Source of the DNA: a virus | Lineage: Duplodnaviria > Heunggongvirae > Uroviricota > Caudoviricetes | Strand: one strand, 5' to 3' | IMG/VR virus record: IMGVR_UViG_3300042997_000183 | Span: 64,001 to 91,971 of that record | Length of the DNA: 27,971 bases | Shown here: positions 3 through 16,171 of the stretch, in pieces | How positions within the stretch are numbered: the first letter of the stretch is position 1 | Layout: every line of letters starts with the position of its first letter | The notes under the pieces: generated by a model | Database searches by the model: none | Seen by the model: only the letters and a program-made list of their open reading frames with translations | Told to the model about the DNA's origin: nothing | Made by a program: the position numbers and the translations under genes

Positions 3-3000
3 GATGCTAGTGATCCAGAGAACCTAGTAGACAGATATTCAGGCATATTAGATGCTATGATTTCTGAGTTAGGTGATGTAAACACTACAGAAGGTCTTGA
101 AGAAAGACTTGCTGCAGAGCTAGATAAGTTAAGTGATGCCACTCTACAAGCTGAGTTGAAAGATAAGTATGTTAGAGACATGTATAAGAAGTCTTTAGAG
201 AATGAATACTACGATTCTTTAACAAAACTTCTTACACTTCCAGAGAACTTTGAGAGATTGATTTCTCCCATAGGAGATGCTGGTTTAAAAGACTTAGCTT
301 CTAAATTAGATAAGTTAAGAGGGTATGATGAAAGCACTATTAAGAACAGGATGCTTGATAGAAACTATCTAACTAAGCTTAGACATGCATTCGTAACTGC
401 TAAGCGTTGGGTGGGTATTGCTGCTGTAAACATCACTAACCATTCTCTTACACAAAAGATTTCTGCATATATTGATCCTAGTAAGTTTGAGCTTGTTAAT
501 GAGGTTGATAGAAAGATATTAGGTGATGGTAAGGTGGCTCTTCCACATAATACAGTGAATATTAATGGTGAAGAACGTATATCCTTATCTTCAATTCTAG
601 ATAAGGCTGGTAAGTATATTTCTGGTAAACTATCTGGATATGCAACAGCGTTTGTGGATGTAGCTAAAGATCCATACATCCTTAAGATTATAGGTTCTGA
701 CTTAGCTGTAGGTACATTTATGTACTTAGAAAGAATTGGTGTTCCAATTGAGACAACAGCAATGTTCATGAATCAGCCTATTATTAAGGAGTATTTAACA
801 TACTTAGATAACACAGGAGCTAGAGGTTTATTTAACCAAAAGAACATAGATGCTGTTAAGTCTAAGTTTGTTACAACTGGAACATTGATTAACTCTGCAG
901 GTGTTAGCGTTGACACTCTTGAAGATAACATTTCAGAATACTATTCTAAAGGAGAACTTAGTGAACCTAAGAATGCTGAGCAACATGTTATACTAAACGA
1001 GTTCTTGAAATACGCTAAGATGGCTGAGTATCTATTTAACTTTGGTCAAGCGATTAACTATGACACTACCAAGTTTAGAAGTGGTGATGCATTGTTTAAG
1101 AAGGAAACAAGAACAGAAGTTGCTGAAGATATTAACATTATTAGTTCTGTAAATGAGTTGTTAGATGCTTCATTTATAGGTAAGCAGGCTGAGCTTATTG
1201 CTTCTTCTATGGAAGCTATGGGTGAGATATTCAAGCTTGAGAAAGATGAGTTTAGAGTTATAACTAATTCAATATTAAAGTCTTTTGCAAAAGATCAATA
1301 CTTAAGTGCTGATGACTATGATAGAATTGCTAACAAACTAAAAGCTTCTTTCCTAGACTACATCATCCAAACTAAGAGTGGTTTAAACAGTGAGATTAAA
1401 GCATTGTTAGTTGATGCAGGTACATCTGTAGCTTCTCAACTAGCTGAGGCTAAGCGTAAGAACCCAGGACTTACAATCTTAAACGACCTACAAGTGGTTA
1501 GTTCTGATAGAGTGGATGGTGCTAAGAGCATTAAACTATTAGCTAATAACAAAGATGCTTACGATGAGAACTTGTATACAGGATATATGAGAGAGCTTAG
1601 AGATAACCCATCTACTACAGAGCTGTACAACAACATAGTTAAATTGTCTATTCTCCAGGGTACATACCAAACAGGTATATCTATAAAGAACATTATTCCT
1701 ATTGAAGACTATAGCAAAATCATTGCTCCAGTAATAGCTCCTCTTGTATCTAATGATTCATTAAAATCATTTGCTCAAGGTGCATTCCAAAGGAATAACT
1801 GGAAAGATGACAAGATATTTGGTAAGGTGAAGCCTAAGTTCTTCTTAGCTCAGGAGACTCCTATTGCTGTGGATATATATGATAATGACATTTACCAATA
1901 CTTCTCTCCAGCTTTCCCTAATATTAAGAACTTAGGAATCAAGTCTACAGACAGAAAGATATTGTTATTGAGTGAGCGTTATAATGCAGCTAGCTTGAAA
2001 TATGATTTTGTTAAGGTTCCTAGAGTGGTTGAAGATAGTTTTACAGGAACAAGAGTTAATATGACTAATGGTGAAAATGTAACCAACTCAATGTTTGCAA
2101 TTAAGAAATCTAAAGGTGACCTATCTTTAAAAGACATATACGGTTATCAAAAGGTTAAATATGCTGACGGTAGTCCAGTGATTGTATATGATGATAAAGG
2201 AGTGGGTAGCCATGTATATAAATTAATTAATCTATATGGTGACGGTCAATTAGCTTCTGAATACTATGAGAACAATATTCCTTCTGTATTAAACAATGGC
2301 ACTGTAAAGATTGCTAATGAGATTACAGACGAAGAAATAATTGCACATTATGGTGGACAAACTCAACCTAAAGTTGTACCTTTACAATCTATGGATAAGA
2401 CTATTCAGATGCAACCTGCTAATATTGAGAAGATTAAAGCTGGTACTAAAACTGCTACAATACGTTCTCAAAAACAAGCTGATGAAATAGGTATTCCTGT
2501 AGGTCAAACACAAGTTAGAAAAATAGGTGATACATATTATAATATTACAAATCGTGGTCTTTTAACTATTGAAGAAGCTGGCGGTAAAGAAAAAATGCTT
2601 AAGGATGATGGTGCAAAATCTGAGAATGATCTTATGTACCAACAGACTAAAGATTGGGTTAATGGTAAGGGTAGACTATATGTATATGATATTGCACCTG
2701 TAACCACTGAAACTCAACCAGTTATAGATAATAGTACATTAAATGATGGGGATGTAGTGTATGATAAAAATGGTACCAAATTTATCTTTAGAGGAATTAG
2801 AGAAGAAGGTAAAGTAGGAGCACGTTCTCCAAGACTTGAAGAAACAGATGGTAGTAAAAACATAGTCATCCCTGGAGAAAATGTAAAACTTTATACTCAA
2901 TCAACTAAAACTCAATCAACTAAAACTCAATCAGCTATAGAGTTTCAAGAAGAACCCACATCAGGATATAAAAATAGAACTATCAAAAATGCAAGTGCTG

Positions 3001-4448
3001 ATGCAACTATTGCTTTTGCTTACAACTTTAATTCTGCTGGTGAGAAGTTAACTAAGTCATCTGTATTAGAACAAAATAAGAAATATATACCTTTAGCTGT
3101 TCCTACAAAGACAGAAACTTCTGATATTAATAAAGCTAATATAACATCTCAAGTTAATGTGATAGTGGACCAATTGAATTCAGTGAACGCTAAAACATTA
3201 AACATAGCAGGAAATGGTATATACACTATGAGAGAAGCTGGATGGAATCAAGAAGAAGTAGATTTAATGACTTATAGAATATTAAAAGGTGTTGTAGAAT
3301 CTCCTAATCTTAAGAACAAAATAGAATCAATTAGAACTGGTGGACAAACAGGATTTGATGAAGCTGGAGCTAAAGCTGGAATTAAATTAGGAATACCTAC
3401 TACTATACTAGCTCCTAAAGGTTGGAAATTTAGAAACATATCTGGTCAAGATATTTCTAATGAACAACAGTTTAAAGCTAGGTTTGGTCAAGTTAATGAA
3501 ACTCAATCAACTAAACCTCAACCAGTTATAGATAGCTCTAAGAAGATTAACATCTATGCAGGTACAGGAGAGAATGCTGAGTTAAGTAACTTTGCTAATA
3601 GACCTTTTACAACAGCAGATGGTGTAGGCTTTGAAAATGTTGAAGGAGCATTTCAAGCAGCTAAACTACTATATAGCTCAGTTTATAATTCTCCTGAATT
3701 TGGTCTTACTCCTAGTTTTTATGATATGTTACTTAAGTTTCAAGAATACTCAGGAGCTAATGCAAAAGAATTAGGAGGAAAAATTAAAGGATTAAATACA
3801 AAAGCATGGGATGCAAACTCTTCAAGAATAATGAAGGAATTAATGAAAGCTTCTTTTGAACAAAATCCATCAGCTCTTAAAGCTTTGTTAGCTACAGGAA
3901 ATGCTGAACTTACCCATACACAAGAGTCTCCTAAATCTAAATGGAGAACAGAGTTTCCTAAACTGTTAATGGAAGTAAGAGAAGAATTAAAACCTAAACC
4001 AGGTTTAAGTGCGTATGTAACTTTAGAGCAATTAGAAGCTGATAAGTCTTTCTTGAATACAGCTATAGAGTTTGTTGATGAAATCTCTACAAACAAAGAT
4101 GTTCCTGTAGCAATGAGAAACTTAAACAAAGGAGAGAAGATCCAAATGGTTAAAGACCTAATGCAGAAAAAGTTTGACGATAAAGCTTGGACCAGTCCTG
4201 TTACACAGGCAGACGGTAGTAAAGCTACAGCACTTCCTGCAGAACAGTTCAAATCATTTAACGAGTTCTTAACGTTTGCTTTGTTACATGAGAAAGCACA
4301 CGAGACTATATCAAAAGTTTCTGGCGAAACAATTGGTCAGTACGAAGATAGAATCAATGCTGCAGCGTTAAACAATATGCCTAAACCTCCTGCTGAATTT
4401 GAAGGCGATTTAGAAGGAGCTGATAACCCTAATCCTTGTGGACAATAA
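3..4448 (+). CDS. Giant virion protein, 5'-partial; probable virion (injected) two-barrel DNA-dependent RNA polymerase C-terminal half, fused to ASCH, SLOG, NADAR and zincin-like modules
   Basis: The frame is open from base 3 (DASDPENLVDRYSGILDAM...), so the gene starts left of the window. Motifs VGIAAVNITNH and SGYATAFVDVAKDP resemble the LG.I.N.H and S.AVD.PKTG motifs that follow the catalytic DxDxD in QDE-1/RDR-like polymerases and crAss-like virion RNAPs. The catalytic motif itself is not in the window. C-terminal motifs: IKAGTKTATIR (ASCH); GGQTGFDEAG and LNIAG (SLOG); LSNF...VEGAFQAAK...FEQNP...LLATG...LMEVR (NADAR); LLHEKAHE. Confidence 0.7.
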   Translation, partial: DASDPENLVDRYSGILDAMISELGDVNTTEGLEERLAAELDKLSDATLQAELKDKYVRDMYKKSLENEYYDSLTKLLTLPENFERLISPIGDAGLKDLASKLDKLRGYDESTIKNRMLDRNYLTKLRHAFVTAKRWVGIAAVNITNHSLTQKISAYIDPSKFELVNEVDRKILGDGKVALPHNTVNINGEERISLSSILDKAGKYISGKLSGYATAFVDVAKDPYILKIIGSDLAVGTFMYLERIGVPIETTAMFMNQPIIKEYLTYLDNTGARGLFNQKNIDAVKSKFVTTGTLINSAGVSVDTLEDNISEYYSKGELSEPKNAEQHVILNEFLKYAKMAEYLFNFGQAINYDTTKFRSGDALFKKETRTEVAEDINIISSVNELLDASFIGKQAELIASSMEAMGEIFKLEKDEFRVITNSILKSFAKDQYLSADDYDRIANKLKASFLDYIIQTKSGLNSEIKALLVDAGTSVASQLAEAKRKNPGLTILNDLQVVSSDRVDGAKSIKLLANNKDAYDENLYTGYMRELRDNPSTTELYNNIVKLSILQGTYQTGISIKNIIPIEDYSKIIAPVIAPLVSNDSLKSFAQGAFQRNNWKDDKIFGKVKPKFFLAQETPIAVDIYDNDIYQYFSPAFPNIKNLGIKSTDRKILLLSERYNAASLKYDFVKVPRVVEDSFTGTRVNMTNGENVTNSMFAIKKSKGDLSLKDIYGYQKVKYADGSPVIVYDDKGVGSHVYKLINLYGDGQLASEYYENNIPSVLNNGTVKIANEITDEEIIAHYGGQTQPKVVPLQSMDKTIQMQPANIEKIKAGTKTATIRSQKQADEIGIPVGQTQVRKIGDTYYNITNRGLLTIEEAGGKEKMLKDDGAKSENDLMYQQTKDWVNGKGRLYVYDIAPVTTETQPVIDNSTLNDGDVVYDKNGTKFIFRGIREEGKVGARSPRLEETDGSKNIVIPGENVKLYTQSTKTQSTKTQSAIEFQEEPTSGYKNRTIKNASADATIAFAYNFNSAGEKLTKSSVLEQNKKYIPLAVPTKTETSDINKANITSQVNVIVDQLNSVNAKTLNIAGNGIYTMREAGWNQEEVDLMTYRILKGVVESPNLKNKIESIRTGGQTGFDEAGAKAGIKLGIPTTILAPKGWKFRNISGQDISNEQQFKARFGQVNETQSTKPQPVIDSSKKINIYAGTGENAELSNFANRPFTTADGVGFENVEGAFQAAKLLYSSVYNSPEFGLTPSFYDMLLKFQEYSGANAKELGGKIKGLNTKAWDANSSRIMKELMKASFEQNPSALKALLATGNAELTHTQESPKSKWRTEFPKLLMEVREELKPKPGLSAYVTLEQLEADKSFLNTAIEFVDEISTNKDVPVAMRNLNKGEKIQMVKDLMQKKFDDKAWTSPVTQADGSKATALPAEQFKSFNEFLTFALLHEKAHETISKVSGETIGQYEDRINAAALNNMPKPPAEFEGDLEGADNPNPCGQ
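2713..3534 (+). repeat. Dispersed 18-bp direct repeat CTCAACCAGTTATAGATA (QPVID linker), two copies
   Basis: Identical at 2713-2730 and 3517-3534; a related linker, CAAACTCAACCTAAAGTT, lies at 2358-2375. Confidence 0.92.
2895..2933 (+). repeat. 15-bp tandem repeat ACTCAATCAACTAAA x2.6 encoding a TQSTK inter-domain linker
   Basis: Exact copies at 2895-2909 and 2910-2924, a partial copy at 2925-2933, and another exact copy at 3501-3515. Confidence 0.95.
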
Positions 4449-4462
4449 ATAACTGATAAACA

Positions 4463-7400
4463 ATGAGTTGTAAAGTAAAGTATATAGAGAACAATTATAG
4501 AGCTGACCATCCTATATTGGCTGATCGATTAACAGACATCTATCACTCAGTATGGAAAAGCATTACCAAGTCTAACATTTTTAGGAAGTATGGTGAAGGT
4601 AATACAGCAACATATTTATTCTCTCCTGCAGGAACTGGTCAGAACAAAAAACAGTTAGAGCTTATCAATAAGATAAACAAGGAGTTTAATGTTCCTGAAG
4701 GAAAGTCTTTGGTTAGATCTAAACTTACAGTGGCAGGTAACAACTCTAAGGTGGAAGTTGATGTAAATCCACTTGCTCAACAAGAATGGGAAAAGATTGC
4801 TGTACAGGGAACATTGTTTCAAAAGCCTACAGACACAGTGAGTTCTAAAGCTTCTCCTAAAACCATTGCTATGGTTAAGGACTTCTTAACTCGTATAGGA
4901 GTTGATGTTAAGCAAATGGACAAGGTTGTTGTGAATGGTGTTAAGGTGGATGCTAATGGTGCTGCCTTGATTACACAAAAATTAGTACAAGTTGTTGAGG
5001 GTAAGGAAGAGGTGGCTCTTACAGAAGAAGCTATGCACTTTGCTGTTGAAATAATCCAGCAATTAGATCCTAAATTATTCAACAAACTATTGAAAGAAAT
5101 CAACAGTTATAACATATTAAATGATGTGTTTCGTGAATATGGATCTGATCCAAACTACCAAACTGCTGATGGTAAGCCTGATATATTGAAGCTTAAAAAA
5201 GAAGCTATTGCTAAGGTGCTTACAGAGACAGTTATTAATAAGAACGAAGGTTTAACAGAAAAGCCTGAGTTAATAGCCAAGGCTGAGAGCTGGTGGCAAA
5301 CAATTGTAAACGCTCTTAAATCTTTATTCCAAAAGTCTGGATTTGACCAAGCTGCAATGCAAGTGTTATCTGGAGAGTTTGTTGGAACAGTTGATGAGCT
5401 TAGAGATTCTGAAAATGATGTTTATCTACAAAAGGATAAACAACAACAGATATACGATTCTATCATGGATCTTAAAGCTAAGGTTGTTAAGAAGGATGAT
5501 GGATACTATGTAGATGGAGTGAAAGTTCTTAGAAGGGTTACTGACTTAGTTAGTGATTGGTACGATAGAAGATTTAAAGCTAATGACTTAACTAAGAGTG
5601 AGTTTGCTAAAGCAGTGGATGATTTAAAAGCTGAGAAAGGTACAGCAGGACATAAAGATATTGAACATGCATTTGAGGTGTTTGTAGATGCTGACGGTTT
5701 CCTAAGAACAGAACCCCTTAATGATGATGGATATGTTTCCAAACTAGATCCTAATGATAGGACTATGTATGAGATGTTAAAGGTAAATCTAAAGGAACGT
5801 TTAAATTCATTCCCTAAAGAAAATGGTGGTACAAGATTTATGTCTGAGGCAATTGTATATGATCCTAAGCGTGACTTAGCTGGTACTATTGACTTCTTAG
5901 CTATTGAACCTGATGGTAAGACAAACATCCTTGACTGGAAGTTTATGGATCTTAACGTAGATAAGTATGATGACATTCCTTGGTATAAGGTGAATGCTTG
6001 GAGATTACAGATGGAGCAATACAAAGCTATCCTTCAAAATACATATAATATTAATCCTCAAGACTTTAAGCAAACAAGAATGATTCCTATTAAAGCATTC
6101 TACTCTCAAGGTAATGCTAAAACTGGAGACCTTCCTAAGCTTCAGTCAATTAAGATAGGTGATGTTAGTGTTAAAGCTATTCAAGATGACTATCTAATCC
6201 CTGTAGGTCTTGAAGGAGAGAAGACAGGTAATAAAAAGATTGATGCTCTCATTGAGAAACTTAATGCTGTATACAAACAGATTTCTGAAAAGAAAGCACT
6301 ACCTTCTGAGAAGCTATCTAAAGCTGAGCAGTTGAATGCTCTCTTTACAGCAATCAGACAGTTACAAATGAAAGGTAATGTTAAACCTCTATTGTATCAG
6401 GCTAAGGTGCTGAACAAGCAAATCAAAACTACAATTGATAATTACAATGCTAACTGGGCTGGTAAAGATCCTAAATCTTTTAGTGAGGAAGAAATGAATA
6501 CCTTTCAAGAAGAGATTGAAACATCACAAGATGCTCTTGACATGTATACAAAGTTAGACTCTGAACTTAGATTCTTATTCCTTGGAGATTTATCAGAAGA
6601 AGATAAGAAACTTAAAGAAGAACTTAGAGATACAGCAGATGATGCTAGAGATTTACAAAGTGATTTAAACACTGTAGCAGAAGAGTTTGCAGATACAATT
6701 ATTGCAGGTAGCGTTGATGTAGATAACTTATTGTCTCCTGAAAAGATTATCAAGGGTATTACTAGATTCTTTTCTTCTACCACTACATTACAGTTGAAGG
6801 GAGTGGAGGTGTTGTTTAAGAAGGCAAACAAAGCTTTTGGTTTATCTTCTATGGACACTCTTACAGAGACCAAAAGATTACAAAATTTAAAAGAAGAATA
6901 CGATAAACTAGCTGCTTCTAAAGGACTTACAATAAAGAACTACTTTGATTTAATTAAGAAGAAAGATAGTAATGAGCTTATAGATGAGTTTAATCCTGAA
7001 TTCTATAAGGAACTAAGAACTAGAATCAACGATAGAGACTATGCTTGGATTAGAGAAAATGTTGATGCTCAAGAGTTTAAAAAGTTCTTAGATGAGAAGC
7101 TAGAAGAAGAGTATAAAAGAATTGATGATAAACCTAGAGTAGGCACAGATGAAGAAATCAACTCTGCAATTGTAAGAGAGAAGAATGATGCTAAGAGAAA
7201 ATATGATGCAAGTACTTCAGAATCAATTGGGTGGTTGCAATATGAACTAGTTAGAAAGTTCCCTGATAGATCTAAGTGGGAATCTAATGAATGGAAAGAA
7301 TTACACAAACCTGATAACAAAGCTGCTCTTGACTTCTATAATTATATTATAGAGAAGAACAATGAATACAAAGAGATTGGCTACATTAATAAAGCTGAAG

Positions 7401-9544: not shown

Positions 9545-12500
9545 ATGGACATTACTTGTTCAGCTGAACCGTGCCCTATTGTATTAAGTGCTACCTGCGT
9601 ATTCTACGAAGGTAATAACTTAATATATACAGGCATTAACAATAATGACAACCTTGAGATTGCTCTACAGAAAATAGATCAAAAGTTCCAAGATGCTGGT
9701 TTAGGTTATATATTTTCAAATGGTATTGAGCAACTAACTCCTGGTGGTGCAGTTATGTTGGGTGGAGCGTTGAATAAGAACACTACAATTGGTGGTTTAT
9801 ACAATCTTGCTTTTGCTGGTACATTAGAAGCTTCTGCCCTTGTTACAACAGGTGGTGCATCATCACAATTTGTAAAGGGTGATGGTAGCTTAGATTCAAC
9901 TAGCTATCAACCTTCAGGTAATTATATTTCAAATTTAACAGGTGATGTAACAGCTAACGGACCAGGTTCTGTAACTGCTACACTAGCAACAGTATTTGGT
10001 GCACCTGGAACATACGGTAATTCAGGAAATGTTCCTAGTATTACAGTGGATGGTAAGGGTAGGATTACAAACGTAACACCTATACCAATCAACTATCCAG
10101 CTCAATCATTAAGTTTTGTAGGGGATGTAGATGGATTTGGTTTCACTGGATCTCCAGTTACACTAACATTAGATACAGTTAATACAGACATTTATGGAAG
10201 TAACAACTTCCTTAAGTTTGCTGTAAACGGTAAAGGACTTATAACATCAGCCACTCCAGTGAGCGGTGGTGATATCACTACAACTCTAGGATATGTACCT
10301 GTAGATGATGCTATTGAATTGACAATCAATGGTATTGCTCATGATTTAACAGCCAATAGAAGTTGGTCTGTAGGTACAGTTACAAGCGTAGGTGTTACTG
10401 CTGGTTTAGGTATTTCTGCTTCTGTAAGCAATCCTAACACTATTCCAGTTATAAATATAGTTAACACTGCTCCTGACCAAACTGTAAATTTAAATGCTGG
10501 TTATGGTATCAGTATATCTGGATCATATCCAAACTTTACAATTACTAACGATTACCCAGATCTTCCAGAAAAGGTAACAAGCTTTAGTTCTGGTAACTTA
10601 GTTCCGTTATTCACTACATCTGTAGCAACTCCTACAACAACCCCTGCTTTAAGTTTTGCATTAGCTAATGCAGCAGCTAACACAGTGTTTGCTGGTCCTG
10701 ATGGTGGAGCAGGGGCTCCTACATACAGAGCTCTAGTGGCTGCAGACATTCCTTCTCTATCATACATTTCTAATATATCTGTATCTGCTCCTCTTGCTTC
10801 TACAGGAGGACTCACTCCTACAATATCTATTAGTCAAGCTAATGCATCTACAGATGGTTACTTGTCTAGTGCAGATTGGAATACATTTAATAATAAAGAA
10901 GATGCTTTAGGATATACACCTGTTCCAGACACTAGACAATTAGGTATCAATGGTGTAAACTATGATCTTACAGCTGACAGATGTTGGTCTGTAGGAACTG
11001 TTACAAGTATTACAGCTTCTGCACCTTTAACAGGTGGTACAATCACTGGCAGTGGTTCAGTTGGTATTACACAAGCAGGTGCTGGTAGTGATGGTTATTT
11101 AAGTTCAACTGACTGGAATACGTTTAATGGTAAACAACCAGCAGGTAATTATATTACAGCTCTCACTGGTGATGCTACAGCTTCAGGTCCTGGATCTGCA
11201 GGCTTAACACTCGCTACAGTGAATGCTGCAACAGGTACATTTGGTAGCTCTACACAAGTTCCTGTAATAACAGTTAATAATAAAGGGTTAGTAACCTGTG
11301 TTACTACAAGTAATATATCTGGATCATTAGAATTTATTGGTGATGTAACAGGAACAGGTTCTACAGGAACTTGTACTAGTCTTACATTAGCTACAGTTAA
11401 TACTGATGTACATACATCTGAGACTTTATTAAACATTGCTGTAAATGGTAAGGGTTTAATTACAAGTGCAAACCCTACAACTGCTGGAGATATTTGTTCT
11501 ACATTAGGATATACTCCTGAGAATGTAGCAAACAAATCTACAGCTACAGCTCTAGGAACATCTAACACCCTCTATCCTACACAACTAGCTGTTAAGACTT
11601 ACGTTGACAGTGCAACAGCTGGTGGTATTATATTACAAGGTGATTGGAACGCAGCTACTAACACTCCTAACATATCTGGAACAACCACAACAGGTTGGGC
11701 TTGGAGAGTTTCTGTACAGGGAACAACAAACCTTGGTGGTATTAATGATTGGCATGTTGGTGACTTAGCAGTTAAGTCTGCTACAGGATGGGTTAAAATA
11801 GATAACACTGAAAACGTAACTAGCGTATTTGGTAGATTTGGTACTGTTATAGCCACCACTGGTGACTATTTAACTTGTCAAGTTACTGAGTGTGGTAATT
11901 TATATTATACAGATGCAAGGGTGAGAGTTGCTGTAGGTCATACAGCCCCTTTAACATATTGTTCTACCACTGGTGTATTTGGTATTACACAATCCAACAC
12001 TACAACAGATGGTTATCTAAGTGCTACAGATTGGACTACATTCAATGATAAGCAACCACTGATTGCTGCTGGTACAATAAGTCAATATTACAGAGGGGAT
12101 AAAACTTTCCAAACATTAGATACATCCGTTGTTACAGAGGGTACTAATCTCTACTTCACTGATAGTAGAGCTAGAAGTGCAATTTGTGCAAGCTCTGGTG
12201 TTGCATATAACCCAACTACAGGACTAATAACAAACTCTTGTCCTGATCAAATAGTTGCTTTAACAGGAGGTGGTACAACCTCTATTACAGGAACCTATCC
12301 TAACTTTTGCATTACATCTTCTGATAGTTTCACAGGAACAGTGACATGTGTTGCTGTAAGTGGTACAAACATTGGTGTAACTGGAAGCCCTATTACATCA
12401 TCTGGCACTATTGGATTATCACTTAGTGGTGCTAATGTATGTGGTGCTTTAGGATTTAGTCCTTACAACTCTACAAACCCTGCAGGTTATACAACTTGTA

Positions 12501-15500
12501 CAGGAACTGTAACAAACGTTGCAACATCTACATCTACTACTGGTGTGCTTCTATCTGGTAGTCCTATTACATCAAGTGGTACACTTGGTATTAATATCTC
12601 CACTGCTTCAACAGTATGCACAGGTTTACTTACAGCTGCTGATTGGAACACATTTAATAGTCACACTAGCTGTAGCGGTACAGTAACTAGTGTAGGTCTT
12701 ATATCTTCAACTGCTGGTATATCAATAGGAAGTACTCCTATTACAACATCAGGAAACATATCATTAAACATTGCCACCGCTTCATCAATCTGTACAGGAT
12801 TGTTAAGCTCTTCAGACTGGAACAGCTTTAATAGCAGAACCAGCTGTACAGGTACTGTTACTTCTGTAAATGCTACAGGAACTAACATCTCTGTAACAGG
12901 TGGTCCAATCACAACATCTGGTAGCCTAGCTATTTCCTTATCTGGAGCAAATGTTTGCTCAGCATTAGGATATACACCTTACAATGCAACCAATCCAAAC
13001 GGTTACACAACATGTATAGGTACAGTTACCTCTGTAGGAGTGGTAGCTACAAACATAAACGTTTGTAATTCTCCTGTAACAACAAGTGGTAACATATGTT
13101 TAAACTTAACAGCTGCTAACGTATGTTCAGCTCTAGGATTTAGTCCTGCTCCATCTTCTGCATTGAGTTCATATTTACCACTTGCTGGTGGTACTATGAC
13201 TGGAAGTATTGCTATGGGTGGGAATAACATCACAGGTTTAAATAATATAACATATTCTGGATCAAATACATACACTGGAAGTGCTAGTGGTCAAGCATTA
13301 AACTTAGCTACAAATGATGGATATGCTTCAATGCGTGTTATTAGAAATAACATGGCTAGTTCACCATTCAATGATGGTATGTACATTGGATATCAAAATG
13401 CTAGTAGTGGTATAACTAGAATATTTGGTGGTGGTTCAACAGGAGGCGGTATTGCAGTAAATGGAGGTGGTGTTAATGATGTAACAATTGCAGGGAATAT
13501 TGCACTAAATGCAGGTAACTACAACTCCTACTCTCCAACATTAACAGGTGGCGGAGCTAGTGGTACGTGGAGTATTACTGCAACAGGTAACGTAGCTTCA
13601 AGAGGTCAATCAAACTGGAATGATGCTACAGTTATAAATAACGTAGTGGGGATGTTAGCATGGAAAAACTATGGCAATGCACACGTTATTTTTGATGCTT
13701 CTCAAGGAACTTCTCCAAGTGGTGGTGGTGTAAGTCAAACTAATGCTACATATGCTTGGGCTGCTTCTTATCCTACATTAATGGGTTGGAATGGCGGTAA
13801 TACATATGGGGTAAGAGTAGATAGTGCTAGAGTAGCTGATAATACTTCTGGCAACTCTGCTACAACATCACAGAGAGATTTTAGTGGAGATATATCCACT
13901 AGCGGTATGGGTCGTTTTACAGGTTGGTATACTGGAAATGCAGCTACAGGTTTAGCAGCTGAAATAGGTATATCAGCAGGACAAGCTTACATTATAGCAT
14001 ATAACAGACAGACAAGCACTTATGGGACTTTAAACCTAGAATCATCAGCCGCCACCTTACGTCTTAGTGGTTCAACAGTTAATGTCATAAGTGGTGCTTT
14101 ACAACAAGGAGGTAATCAAGTTCTTCATGCAGGTAACTTTAACTCTTACTCACCTACACTAACAGGTGGAGGAGCAAGTGGAACATGGGGAATTAACATT
14201 ACAGGTAATTCTGTCACCGTTGGAGGATATGGTGTATCTACAGGTGCTTCTGCTAATACAGTTGTTGTTAGAGATAGTAACGCTTATACCTTCCTTAACT
14301 ATATTAATAGTAATACTTCTAATTTTGAAAATCCAACTGTTTCACAAGTTATTGTAACAAATGGAACTGATAACTACTATCGTAAAGCAGGTATAGATCA
14401 TCTTACAACTGCTGTAAGGAGTAGTGCATCTGGTACTTGGGGGATTAATATTACAGGTTCCGCAGGAAGTGCAGGTTCTGCAAGCACTGCAAGTTTAGTA
14501 AATGGTACATCAGGTGGTGCTATTCAGACTTGGGATGTAAGAACTATCTCTCCTTCAACTATGACATCCTATAGAATGGGATTTGGTTTTACATCGTGGG
14601 CTAATAATAATAGTGCTCCATACGCTGACTACTTACATCTTCGTTCATATGGTGATGGGTCAGGAGGAAGTGATAATCTTGTGACATTCCTTAAGAGTGG
14701 ATTTGGAATGAGAATCTGGCAGCAGTCATTTGGCTCTTCTTCTCCATATTCTTCTTATGTAGATGTATTACATTCTAGCAACTATAGCTCATATGCTCTA
14801 CCTCTTTCTGGTGGCGAACTTAGTGGTCCTTTATATGTAGGAACTACAGGTTCAGGTGTGTATACAACACATTGGAAAGATGGAGGAGGCAGTTATCAAG
14901 AAGCTGTTGGTAATAGTACATCCACAAGGAAGTTAAGACTGCAATCTTTTAATGGTTCATCATCATATGCTCAGTGGTATATGGATGGTGGTAATATGCA
15001 AATATATGGGGATGTTGCTGGTGTTAGAAATTTCCTTATAGATAGTACTACTGCTTATTTACGTTGGGGTGGTGGTGATAGGTTATGGGGTGGTAGTGAT
15101 GGTACAAGAAACTCTGGTTGGGCATATCATCAAGATACTAGTACAGGATTACATTGGCCTGGTAATGGATGGCATTTAATGCCAGCAAGTAACTCTGATT
15201 TTAGAATATATTCAGGTAATAGTTCAAATACTGCTTTAAGATTTGAAACTGCTGGAACTACTCGTGGGTATGTATATGCTGAAAATGATAATACTATTGG
15301 ATTTTTAACTAATGGAAGAAGTTGGGCTTTTAGAACATATTCTAATGGTAATGCTCAAGTATATGGTTATTTAACTGTAAATGGAGCAGGTACATCAAGC
15401 TCCATATACATGAATGATACTGATGAAGGTCAACGTGAAATACATTGTAATTCAAACCGTATTGGTTTCTTAACTCAAGCTGGAGCATGGGGTGCTTGGT

Positions 15501-16171
15501 CTAATGATAATGGTAGCTGGGAATCTGTTTCTTCCGTTACTACTAATGATTGGTTTTATGTAAATGGAGGTGGAGGATTATATTGGAGTTCTTATGGTAG
15601 AGGACTTCGTTCTCCAGATGCAGAAGGTAATCCTTATGGTAATGTTAATACCTATGGTTCTGGAAGAAACGGTTGGTTGGGTTATGGTGTTGGAACACAA
15701 TTTGCATTTATGGGTAGAGAGTCTACCGATATAGGTGTGCATGATTTAGGATATGGGTGGATATTTTATTCTCCATACGCTACTGGTAGAATGGGTATAG
15801 GTACATCTACCACTTCTTCTTCATATAGATTATATGTTGAGGGCGGTATTTATGCAACTGGCGATGTGGTTGCTTATTCTGACCGTAGAAAAAAGACAAA
15901 TGTTGAAACTATAGAAAACGCTCTTCAGAAAGTTACAAGTCTTCGTGGTGTATTTTACAATAAGATTGGTGAAGAAAATAAAGGTAGACAACTTGGAGTT
16001 ATTGCACAAGAAGTAGATGAAGTGTTACCAGAAGCTGTAAATTATGCAGCAGATGTAGATGAGTATGGTGTTAAATATGGTAATATGGTAGGTGTACTTA
16101 TTGAAGCTATCAAAGAACAGCAGAAACAAATTGAAGACCTTAAATCTATAATCGATGGCCTTACCAGTTAG
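9545..16171 (+). CDS. Giant tail fibre (2208 aa) with C-terminal peptidase S74 intramolecular chaperone
   Basis: Gly/Ser/Thr-rich repeats (GTVTSV, DGYLSSxDWNTFN, ALGYTPYNxTNPxGY, YLPLAGGTMTG). The C-terminus YSDRRKKTNVETIENALQKV..LRGV..LGVIAQEVDEVLPEAV..VKYGNMVGVLIEAIKEQQ matches the S74 chaperone pattern. Confidence 0.93.
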   Translation: MDITCSAEPCPIVLSATCVFYEGNNLIYTGINNNDNLEIALQKIDQKFQDAGLGYIFSNGIEQLTPGGAVMLGGALNKNTTIGGLYNLAFAGTLEASALVTTGGASSQFVKGDGSLDSTSYQPSGNYISNLTGDVTANGPGSVTATLATVFGAPGTYGNSGNVPSITVDGKGRITNVTPIPINYPAQSLSFVGDVDGFGFTGSPVTLTLDTVNTDIYGSNNFLKFAVNGKGLITSATPVSGGDITTTLGYVPVDDAIELTINGIAHDLTANRSWSVGTVTSVGVTAGLGISASVSNPNTIPVINIVNTAPDQTVNLNAGYGISISGSYPNFTITNDYPDLPEKVTSFSSGNLVPLFTTSVATPTTTPALSFALANAAANTVFAGPDGGAGAPTYRALVAADIPSLSYISNISVSAPLASTGGLTPTISISQANASTDGYLSSADWNTFNNKEDALGYTPVPDTRQLGINGVNYDLTADRCWSVGTVTSITASAPLTGGTITGSGSVGITQAGAGSDGYLSSTDWNTFNGKQPAGNYITALTGDATASGPGSAGLTLATVNAATGTFGSSTQVPVITVNNKGLVTCVTTSNISGSLEFIGDVTGTGSTGTCTSLTLATVNTDVHTSETLLNIAVNGKGLITSANPTTAGDICSTLGYTPENVANKSTATALGTSNTLYPTQLAVKTYVDSATAGGIILQGDWNAATNTPNISGTTTTGWAWRVSVQGTTNLGGINDWHVGDLAVKSATGWVKIDNTENVTSVFGRFGTVIATTGDYLTCQVTECGNLYYTDARVRVAVGHTAPLTYCSTTGVFGITQSNTTTDGYLSATDWTTFNDKQPLIAAGTISQYYRGDKTFQTLDTSVVTEGTNLYFTDSRARSAICASSGVAYNPTTGLITNSCPDQIVALTGGGTTSITGTYPNFCITSSDSFTGTVTCVAVSGTNIGVTGSPITSSGTIGLSLSGANVCGALGFSPYNSTNPAGYTTCTGTVTNVATSTSTTGVLLSGSPITSSGTLGINISTASTVCTGLLTAADWNTFNSHTSCSGTVTSVGLISSTAGISIGSTPITTSGNISLNIATASSICTGLLSSSDWNSFNSRTSCTGTVTSVNATGTNISVTGGPITTSGSLAISLSGANVCSALGYTPYNATNPNGYTTCIGTVTSVGVVATNINVCNSPVTTSGNICLNLTAANVCSALGFSPAPSSALSSYLPLAGGTMTGSIAMGGNNITGLNNITYSGSNTYTGSASGQALNLATNDGYASMRVIRNNMASSPFNDGMYIGYQNASSGITRIFGGGSTGGGIAVNGGGVNDVTIAGNIALNAGNYNSYSPTLTGGGASGTWSITATGNVASRGQSNWNDATVINNVVGMLAWKNYGNAHVIFDASQGTSPSGGGVSQTNATYAWAASYPTLMGWNGGNTYGVRVDSARVADNTSGNSATTSQRDFSGDISTSGMGRFTGWYTGNAATGLAAEIGISAGQAYIIAYNRQTSTYGTLNLESSAATLRLSGSTVNVISGALQQGGNQVLHAGNFNSYSPTLTGGGASGTWGINITGNSVTVGGYGVSTGASANTVVVRDSNAYTFLNYINSNTSNFENPTVSQVIVTNGTDNYYRKAGIDHLTTAVRSSASGTWGINITGSAGSAGSASTASLVNGTSGGAIQTWDVRTISPSTMTSYRMGFGFTSWANNNSAPYADYLHLRSYGDGSGGSDNLVTFLKSGFGMRIWQQSFGSSSPYSSYVDVLHSSNYSSYALPLSGGELSGPLYVGTTGSGVYTTHWKDGGGSYQEAVGNSTSTRKLRLQSFNGSSSYAQWYMDGGNMQIYGDVAGVRNFLIDSTTAYLRWGGGDRLWGGSDGTRNSGWAYHQDTSTGLHWPGNGWHLMPASNSDFRIYSGNSSNTALRFETAGTTRGYVYAENDNTIGFLTNGRSWAFRTYSNGNAQVYGYLTVNGAGTSSSIYMNDTDEGQREIHCNSNRIGFLTQAGAWGAWSNDNGSWESVSSVTTNDWFYVNGGGGLYWSSYGRGLRSPDAEGNPYGNVNTYGSGRNGWLGYGVGTQFAFMGRESTDIGVHDLGYGWIFYSPYATGRMGIGTSTTSSSYRLYVEGGIYATGDVVAYSDRRKKTNVETIENALQKVTSLRGVFYNKIGEENKGRQLGVIAQEVDEVLPEAVNYAADVDEYGVKYGNMVGVLIEAIKEQQKQIEDLKSIIDGLTS

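Follow-up and report, generated by a model that had tools for sequence, protein, structure and literature searches.

We analyzed a 27,971-nucleotide stretch of viral DNA (the window), which covers bases 64001 to 91971 of the 91,971-bp IMG/VR virus record IMGVR_UViG_3300042997_000183. At positions 3 to 4448 the window holds a single unbroken reading frame that is truncated by the window start. The full open reading frame (ORF) occupies genome positions 53434 to 68448, starts 10.6 kb upstream of the window and encodes, with no internal stop, a protein of 5004 amino acids (aa), P0004, of which the window carries the last 1481 aa (P0001), the C-terminal 30%. By sequence homology, P0004 holds a crAss-like phage's gp66-type two-barrel virion RNA polymerase, and behind this polymerase lies a series of small domains that leads into a constant, zincin-like end. 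Here we show that these domains are cassettes that are exchanged between closely related phages, with breakpoints on short repeated linker-coding joints. We think it rather likely that P0004 is a packaged polyvalent protein and that the exchanged cassettes, which would be ejected together with the polymerase, act on host defenses before phage transcription.

Exchange of cassettes between near-identical phages

A search with the polymerase core retrieved 892 giant relatives. Nine of these (P0005 to P0013), with a core 96 to 99% identical to that of P0004, show length differences of up to 966 aa, and all nine end in the same zincin domain. Between the core and the zincin domain there is nothing in P0010 and P0012, an ASCH module in P0006, a DprA-like SLOG in P0008 and P0009, a DprA-like SLOG followed by NADAR in P0005 and P0007, ASCH-SLOG-NADAR in P0013, and ASCH-AlkB-NADAR in P0011. 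The fragments P0125 to P0127 add ASCH-X, barrel-phrog_2072, and a lone DprA-like SLOG. A previous reading of this DNA, made from the sequence only, had stated that an invariant tail among close relatives would speak against it; instead, at least nine tail architectures, including the ASCH-barrel-SLOG-NADAR of P0004, are found on a polymerase that is 96 to 99% identical. The same reading had described a string of separable modules behind an RNA polymerase-like region. Its borders hold within a few codons over the last 685 aa, and the modules are indeed separable, as they occur one at a time and in different arrangements in relatives.

The exchange can be followed at the DNA level. Three relatives have DNA that is colinear with the P0004 genome at 93 to 98% identity, with alignment breaks that coincide exactly with the borders of modules. 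Against the tail-less genome L043 the breaks lie at window positions 2394/2395 and 3994, and against the genome with a DprA-like SLOG (L044) they lie at 2394 and 3500. Against the genome of P0013 (L042), which is otherwise 97% identical and in which the barrel is missing, the breaks are at 2728 (joint 1) and 2919 (joint 2), with an overlap of 23 nucleotides (nt) on the subject sequence. Because of this overlap, the barrel can be described as a 213-nt indel that is bounded by a 23-nt direct repeat. The core of the repeat, ACTCAAYCAGYTATAGA, is 17 nt long and occurs three times in the window, once at each of the three inner joints, versus 0 expected. In the protein sequences, all joints of all variants have the form xTQP or xTQS. 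If every module shares this joint, and with it the 17- to 23-nt repeat, homologous recombination could swap domains without loss of the reading frame. We considered that the joints could be chimeras generated during assembly. This seems unlikely, as the shared DNA is only 17 to 23 nt long and the P0013 architecture was found on 7 contigs; the five-module order of P0004 itself comes from a single record.

There is another variable site in P0004, located in front of the polymerase (first variable site, Table 1). It contains a different sequence in each of the near-identical relatives, with joints that read AELAALEG(Q/K)P, and in other relatives an ASCH (P0093) or a NADAR (P0044) module is present there. 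The insert that this genome carries at the site had no match in Pfam or PHROGs. In 120 relatives the part behind the core ranges from 11 to 1224 aa, and it is shorter than 70 aa in 44 of the 120. A Pfam scan of the 76 tails of at least 100 aa detected NADAR in 13 tails, a superfamily 1 (SF1; PIF1/RecD/TraI-like) helicase in 7, DUF7831 in 7, an AlkB-type dioxygenase in 4, cpYpsA in 2, and His_Phos_1 in 1.

Identity of the polymerase

When residues 2000 to 4320 of P0004 were compared with all PDB chains by phmmer, 6VR4_A, which is gp66 of phage phi14:2, was the sole match (E value of 1.2e-21). The stretch GSDFDIDK of P0004 is identical to the corresponding stretch of gp66 in this alignment, and the overall sequence identity is about 27%. 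A profile of 13 relatives matched gp66 with an E value of 2.4e-32, with profile positions 804 to 1799 on gp66 residues 807 to 1725, which indicates that residues 2036 to 4319 are colinear with the whole of gp66. The catalytic DFDID, at residues 3459 to 3463, is invariant in the 13 relatives and is located 179 to 193 nt upstream of the window start. This is the DxDxD motif for which the sequence-only reading had proposed to search the upstream DNA, and the RNA polymerase-like helical region that it had described at positions 3 to 2390 corresponds to the C-terminal third of the gp66-like polymerase module. A tblastn search of GenBank phages with the catalytic region gave 102 matches, and all 102 are crAss-like phages, with phi14:2 as the best match. 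The polymerase part inside the window has a ratio of non-synonymous to synonymous substitution rates (dN/dS) of 0.10 to 0.18 relative to three relatives.

Previously, it was shown that gp66 is a component of the virion and, with rifampicin present, transcribes early genes, that in vitro it strongly prefers single-stranded over double-stranded DNA, that its relative QDE-1 requires a helicase and RPA, and that g066 of phi14:2 is transcribed at middle and late times (10.1101/2020.03.07.982082). In crAss001, the homologues were detected by mass spectrometry of the virions, and it has been proposed that they cross the tail in a partly unfolded state (PMC10172136). Whether proteolysis activates gp66 was left open by Drobysheva et al., who expected fused polyproteins to be cleaved. 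P0004 and gp66 have in common the identical local context of DFDID, colinear homology over about 1000 residues, a similar module length (2284 aa here versus 2180 aa for gp66), a location between two other large virion proteins, and the terminal-cysteine rule at the junctions that is described below. They differ in that gp66 is a separate protein without tail modules, whereas the polymerase of P0004 is fused to an upstream cargo protein and is extended by a 685-aa cassette array with the zincin end. BLASTP of the five modules against gp078, gp077, and gp076 of phi14:2 gave no match.

The modules behind the polymerase

The NADAR and SLOG modules both have strong matches to phage families in PHROGs. 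NADAR was recognized by Pfam (PF08719) with 42.4 to 45.8 bits, versus a cut-off of 35.1, and YbiA of Escherichia coli (2B3W) aligns over the whole domain (E value of 5.7e-6). The module retains both Glu and Lys of the E-x6-K motif (VEGAFQAAK), which align with E...QxxK of YbiA, and Phage_30_3, the family of T4 gp30.3/AdfN, gave a secondary, sub-threshold match. NADAR proteins reverse the ADP-ribosylation of guanine in single-stranded DNA (PMC11543638), and AdfN (gp30.3) of T4 is a NADAR protein that defeats DarTG1, with E36 and K43 as the catalytic residues (PMC11825919). The module in P0004 resembles AdfN in its family, in the conserved Glu and Lys, and in its expected substrate, ADP-ribosylated DNA. 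It is unlike AdfN, which is a free-standing gene product, in being part of a protein that is expected to be delivered ready-made.

The SLOG module matched the cpYpsA family of Pfam (PF12694) with 33.4 to 35.7 bits, versus a cut-off of 26.2, over profile positions 44 to 125 of 145, and it matched phrog_10774 with an E value of 5.4e-32. The cpYpsA structure 3IMK was found with an E value of 1.1e-4, in two pieces that do not have the same order as in 3IMK: residues 135 to 169 of the query correspond to chain residues 7 to 41, and residues 7 to 56 correspond to chain residues 52 to 101. Because of the swapped order, we have filed the module as a YpsA-like SLOG and not as a strict cpYpsA; its sequence suggests a circular arrangement that is different from that of 3IMK. 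The module carries GGQTGFD near its C-terminal end; in 3IMK, GGQTG.D is near the N terminus. This module is 41 to 44% identical to the SLOG segments within the PhiCrAssBcn1 and cr10_1 polymerase ORFs. For viral SLOG and NADAR proteins, which are often linked to the virion, a role against NAD-derived signals has been predicted (PMC9503650).

For the module that directly follows the polymerase, the ASCH-like assignment is weak and is partly based on a predicted structure. Pfam ASCH (PF04266) was the only family seen, below the threshold (E value of 0.097; 13.8 bits versus a cut-off of 21.2) and over just the first 23 profile positions, and the Pfam scan of the whole P0004 protein gave no ASCH match. 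The ASCH-like part of the AlphaFold2 (AF2) model has a predicted local distance difference test score (pLDDT) of about 75 to 87. VIA-align, for which a Z score of 8 is the caution line, aligned 91 to 96 of its about 105 residues with 2z0t, 9kyf (YqfB), and 1xne, at Z scores of 4.6 to 4.7 and ranks 31 to 39. Seven aligned ASCH-like sequences, which are as little as 47% identical, all keep a G-x-K-T-x-T-x-R motif and EAGGK. A Foldseek search of PDB and AFDB clusters with the model of ASCH plus barrel returned nothing at an E value of 0.001 or less; the ASCH part had no match, and for the barrel there were only generic SH3/KOW/Tudor rows. When the ASCH alignment profile was compared with PDB sequences, no ASCH was found and the only row was a chance match to TIR (E value of 1.4). 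There was no tblastn match of ASCH plus barrel, or of the zincin domain, in 50,697 GenBank phage records, and PHROGs has no family for the zincin domain, the ASCH-like module, or the barrel. Feature searches of the ESM-Atlas with the zincin and ASCH parts gave scores of 0.76 to 0.83, which are below the informative level of the tool and provide leads only.

The next module is possibly an SH3/Tudor-like barrel, and we regard this as a lead only. Its AF2 model is of low confidence (pLDDT of 50 to 63). The VIA-align results were the RNA polymerase-interacting domain (RID) of Mfd (Z score of 6.4), CarD (5.8), and the C-terminal domain (CTD) of UvrD (5.3), over 53 to 62 residues; generic SH3/Tudor folds score alike, and all scores are below 8. 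CarD, Mfd-RID, and UvrD-CTD at the top of the list would make the barrel a candidate binder of the host RNA polymerase, and we rejected this because the Z scores are below 8 and were obtained with a low-confidence model. In other proteins the barrel either follows the core directly (P0125) or comes last in the module string (P0275, P0276). A scan of viral contigs gave three short partial matches and an extended search gave four fragments, and a word-index search among small proteins gave no match.

The constant domain at the end can be called zincin-like with modest confidence, from its motif and a model with a pLDDT of 90. Besides HEKAH (Table 1), there are conserved Glu residues at 4326 to 4328 and 4344 to 4346, and both His residues and the Glu of the motif, as well as a Tyr-Glu further downstream, show little or no variation in an alignment of 40 sequences. 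The AF2 model based on this alignment (pLDDT of 90.4) consists of three strands and two long C-terminal helices. The fold matches obtained with Foldseek and VIA-align are almost all zincins (YbeY, IrrE/PprI, Wss1/SprT, minigluzincins, and ArdC), and there was also a match in AFDB to a "large polyvalent protein associated domain" (template modeling score of 0.55, root mean square deviation of 3.1 over 115 residues). As the Z scores do not exceed 5.8, membership is stated at the level of fold and motif only. In a set of 1.84 billion clusters there are 208 representatives of the domain, which, among the matches listed, is mostly found within proteins of 1000 to 5300 aa, at any position. Its dN/dS is 0 to 0.11, and purifying selection is as strong as in the polymerase core.

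Terminal cysteines

P0004 has two Cys residues in 5004 aa, and one of these, Cys5002, is the third residue from the end, in the acidic peptide past the zincin domain. In P0004 and the 120 relatives, which have a median of two Cys residues each, the last Cys is within the last 6 residues in 121 of 121 proteins, whatever the tail. The product of the next gene has one Cys, residue 3, which faces the C-terminal Cys of P0004. The next ORF also begins with M-x(1-3)-C in 33 related loci, and its product has no further Cys in 32 of the 33. Among cultured phages, the same rule is seen in phi14:2, where gp078 has a single Cys at its very end, gp66 (2180 residues) has Cys at positions 3 and 2179, and gp076 has Cys 3 alone, and it is also followed by Dulem virus 41, IAS virus, cr108_1, and crAss001. 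Where the proteins are fused (P0004, crAss002, and cr271_1), the Cys pair is missing at that junction. It is known that virions of crAss001 contain disulfides. The sequences suggest a head-to-tail disulfide or metal link between the ejected proteins, a rule that our literature search found in no paper. Since the terminal Cys lies past the cassettes, the C-terminal end, cassettes included, would be marked as part of the assembly.

An acidic tag of the kind seen in P0004 (window positions 4374 to 4445), (D/E)LEG(A/G)D(N/E)PNPCG(Q/K), ends many otherwise different giant proteins with the same zincin domain (P0130, P0135, P0137, P0141, P0145, P0148, P0153, P0170, and P0175), and it occurs even where the zincin domain is not adjacent to the protein end. 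This tag around the terminal Cys may be a packaging or docking signal. The cargo proteins encoded at genome positions 43529 to 53421 are nearly free of Cys: the 1087-aa and 901-aa proteins have none, and the 1272-aa protein, which ends in ..GGWLTKYK, has four, all in an N-terminal CxC...CxxC cluster.

Gene layout and genome setting

The genome carries genes for TerL, the portal, and the major capsid protein, followed by genes for virion-type proteins of 1625, 1272, 1087, and 901 aa and then by the P0004 gene, behind which are the genes for the 1647-aa protein and for a fiber-like protein of 2208 aa. The P0004 gene is thus one of several giant cargo genes behind the structural module, as is the case for gp66-type genes. 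All of these genes are on one strand, and the GC content is 33 to 39%. The layout of P0004 and of the junction with the next gene is given in Table 1.

Table 1. Features of the P0004 gene and the start of its neighbor (positions refer to the window unless stated otherwise)
Feature	Position in window	Strand	Other coordinates and remarks
N-terminal cargo module			P0004 residues ~1-1590; upstream of window
First variable site			P0004 residues 1594-2035; genome 58214-59538; L003 4781-6105; upstream of window
gp66-type RNA polymerase module			P0004 residues 2036-4319; 2284 aa
C-terminal third of gp66-like two-barrel virion RNA polymerase module	3-2390	+	homology to 6VR4_A
ASCH-like module (PUA-like barrel), weak assignment	2391-2699	+	sub-threshold Pfam match, weak fold matches
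Joint 1, linker VTTETQPVID	2700-2729	+	first copy of DNA repeat at 2712-2728
Small beta module, possible SH3/Tudor-like barrel	2730-2900	+	low-confidence AF2 model
Joint 2, STKTQ twice, then SAIE	2901-2942	+	second copy of DNA repeat at 2925-2941
SLOG module, YpsA-like / cpYpsA type	2943-3500	+	Pfam PF12694, phrog_10774
Joint 3, linker TQSTKPQPVID	3501-3533	+	third copy of DNA repeat at 3516-3532
NADAR module	3534-3989	+	Pfam PF08719, YbiA match
Joint 4 (KPKPG), leads into the constant end	3990-4004	+	alignment with tail-less L043 resumes at 3994
Constant domain, zincin-like metallopeptidase type	4005-4373	+	HEKAH at 4287-4301; AF2 model
Acidic C-terminal peptide ending ..LEGADNPNPCGQ, then stop	4374-4448	+	Cys5002 at 4437-4439
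Next cargo gene, 1647 aa	4463-9406	+	sole Cys (residue 3) at 4469-4471

Two observations concern the neighboring genes. Residues 339 to 608 of the 1647-aa protein (P0002; window positions 5477 to 6287) gave weak nuclease-like signals, namely, a Pfam match to PD-(D/E)XK with an E value of 0.0065, which is below the cut-off, and a match to phrog_298, "exonuclease," with an E value of 8.7e-5. The 2208-aa fiber-like protein (window positions 9545 to 16171) is rich in Gly, Thr, and Ser, has 26 Cys residues and internal repeated segments, and its last approximately 130 aa resemble, by eye only, the self-cleaving chaperone end of tail spikes.

Proposed role and alternatives

P0004 combines polymerase, ASCH-like, SLOG, NADAR, and zincin modules, which are unrelated activities, in one ORF. 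The term polyvalent protein, which the sequence-only reading had used for it, fits the description by Iyer et al. in 2017, with a zincin-like peptidase as the constant module (PMC5512222), and as far as sequence can show, the interpretation of that reading, in which counter-defense enzymes are injected together with the genome, is supported. In the mechanism that we propose, the protein would be packaged and ejected in the same way as gp66, and since the modules are fused to the polymerase, they would be delivered into the recipient with the DNA. The cassettes would enter the cell with the first DNA, ahead of any phage transcription, and would strip or neutralize host-made marks on exposed nucleic acid or alarm signals of the host. 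The NADAR module would take ADP-ribose off guanines of single-stranded DNA after a DarT1-type attack, SLOG would bind or cleave a nucleotide derived from NAD or ADP-ribose, as has been put forward for viral SLOGs of the YpsA-like type (PMC9503650), and ASCH would act as a YqfB-like (N4-acetylcytidine) amidohydrolase or as an RNA binder. As gp66 prefers single-stranded templates, the modules would act on the substrate that is read by the polymerase, and the AlkB or SF1 helicase that fills these places in relatives would fit a role in keeping the single-stranded template readable. The zincin domain may cut the polyprotein, which would free the modules and perhaps activate the polymerase, or it may be required for encapsidation. 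The cassettes are probably ready-made tools that shield the DNA as it enters, when no phage gene has been read yet.

Several points weigh against this interpretation. Packaging and ejection of P0004 are deduced from homology. The ASCH and barrel modules were assigned from weak fold matches, all with Z scores below 8, and for the barrel from a low-confidence model, and the zincin domain has no known cleavage site. The NADAR module lacks part of the C-terminal loop of YbiA, and its dN/dS is 0.76 relative to one relative. The ASCH module has 8 non-synonymous versus 1 synonymous changes, which are clustered in one patch, and NADAR has 18.5 versus 6.5; because there are too few substitutions, no conclusion on positive selection in the cassettes is drawn. 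The exact order of the five modules is known from one IMG/VR record only. Moreover, the 44 of 120 relatives that are almost tail-less indicate that the cassettes are dispensable.

More tentatively, the stretch between core and zincin may be a dedicated site for the in-frame exchange of cassettes, a kind of "effector integron." Recombination between co-infecting strains would insert, delete, or reorder domains at this site, the zincin would cut at or near the joints after entry and so free a strain-specific set of enzymes, and the terminal Cys would tie the protein to the next cargo as one ejected thread. This is possible, and we consider it clearly less probable than the general role in counter-defense.

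The repertoire of the cassettes, which is mostly directed at nucleic acids (NADAR, AlkB, SF1 helicase, and ASCH), could also mean that the modules stay tethered and serve the polymerase in cis, where they would keep the single-stranded template and the nascent RNA free of ADP-ribose, alkyl, and acyl lesions or supply single-stranded DNA, with a structural or packaging function for the zincin domain. This would be in line with the fact that gp66 transcribes single-stranded DNA far better than double-stranded DNA, with the need of QDE-1 for a helicase and RPA, and with the position of the modules, which are directly behind the polymerase in every variant. In addition, the virion RNA polymerase (vRNAP) of N4 is packaged unprocessed and yet its zincin region is needed for encapsidation (PMC5512222). 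However, ASCH and NADAR are also found at the other variable site about 2300 residues away (P0093 and P0044), which argues against a fixed geometry, presence or absence at the strain level is more usual for genes in an arms race than for core accessory factors, and SLOG has no obvious repair role. A function in cis seems unlikely to us.

Timing offers another alternative, in which the gene is expressed late, the zincin cuts the cassettes off before packaging, the cassettes work in the late infected producer cell or are discarded, and only the polymerase is injected. There is a precedent in DdrB of phage P1, which is cleaved before packaging by its C-terminal zincin (PMC5512222), and both the middle and late transcription of g066 in phi14:2 and the cleavage of fused polyproteins expected by Drobysheva et al. 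would agree with it. The Cys that faces the next cargo, however, is located beyond the cassettes and the zincin domain and is kept in all 121 proteins, which would be hard to explain if this end were discarded, and counter-defense against DNA modification would be most useful at entry. We consider removal before packaging improbable. Finally, it is very improbable that the cassettes are neutral or selfish passengers, domains that come and go without benefit at recombination-prone repeated joints, as the coexistence of tail-less and tailed variants and a dN/dS that looks elevated in two cassettes, with few changes, could suggest, since all insertions are in frame and intact, the putative catalytic residues are kept (E and K in NADAR; the K, T, R, and E columns of ASCH, invariant down to 47% identity), and the same small set of enzyme families is met again in independent lineages.

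Comparison with known systems

A close parallel to P0004 is found in the polyvalent proteins with an N4-type vRNAP, a polymerase that is always fused to zincin peptidase domains and effectors (PMC5512222). P0004 is like these proteins in combining a polymerase with a constant zincin hub and variable effectors of unrelated chemistry, with delivery being expected by analogy here. It is unlike them in that the N4 polymerase is a T7-like single-subunit enzyme, whereas that of P0004 is of the unrelated two-barrel type, and the effectors described there are lysozyme, RNase, and ADP-ribosyltransferase. ASCH, SLOG, and NADAR have 0 occurrences in PMC5512222, and strain-level exchange of cassettes at repeated linker DNA is absent from its available passages.

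Among crAss-like phages, a cpYpsA-type SLOG that is fused or adjacent to the polymerase protein is also present in cr10_1, PhiCrAssBcn1, and IAS virus. In cr10_1 (NC_055875; L054) it is at the extreme C terminus of a 4460-aa "hypothetical protein," in PhiCrAssBcn1 (OQ221536; L007) it is N-terminal, at residues 91 to 257 of a "putative RNA polymerase," and in IAS virus (L051) it is in an 837-aa "molybdenum carrier" gene directly upstream of the polymerase gene. Unlike P0004, these three have a single SLOG, with no multi-cassette array and no zincin cap. There is also a likeness to the polymorphic toxins described by Zhang et al. in 2012, which have a constant delivery scaffold and a variable enzymatic end that is driven by recombination (PMC3482391). 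Those toxins are bacterial and secreted, have immunity genes, and obtain their variable tip from stand-alone downstream cassettes, whereas P0004 has an internal array with a constant cap, no immunity genes, and enzymes that are predicted to be de-modifying rather than toxic.

Fusions of crAss cargo proteins and a zincin domain in gp65 orthologues were already known. A literature search for a link between crAss-like polymerases and NADAR or polyvalent proteins gave nothing relevant in the collection searched, and we found no description of a two-barrel crAss polymerase that carries an array of ASCH, SLOG, NADAR, AlkB, or helicase modules, of array turnover between near-identical strains, or of the repeated in-frame joints.

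Phages of the crAss-like group are among the most abundant phages known. A defense of the DarT type hits the incoming DNA itself, and an enzyme that is borne by the polymerase would already be there, whereas one that must be transcribed and translated may come late. The concept of polyvalent proteins is extended here from the T7-like polymerase of N4 to an unrelated two-barrel polymerase, which suggests a convergent use of the "first protein in" as a carrier of effectors. The zincin domain is a candidate for the protease in the possible proteolytic activation of gp66-type polymerases. Finally, the locus is a natural experiment, as it provides near-isogenic phages that differ only in their modules, including a tail-less form.

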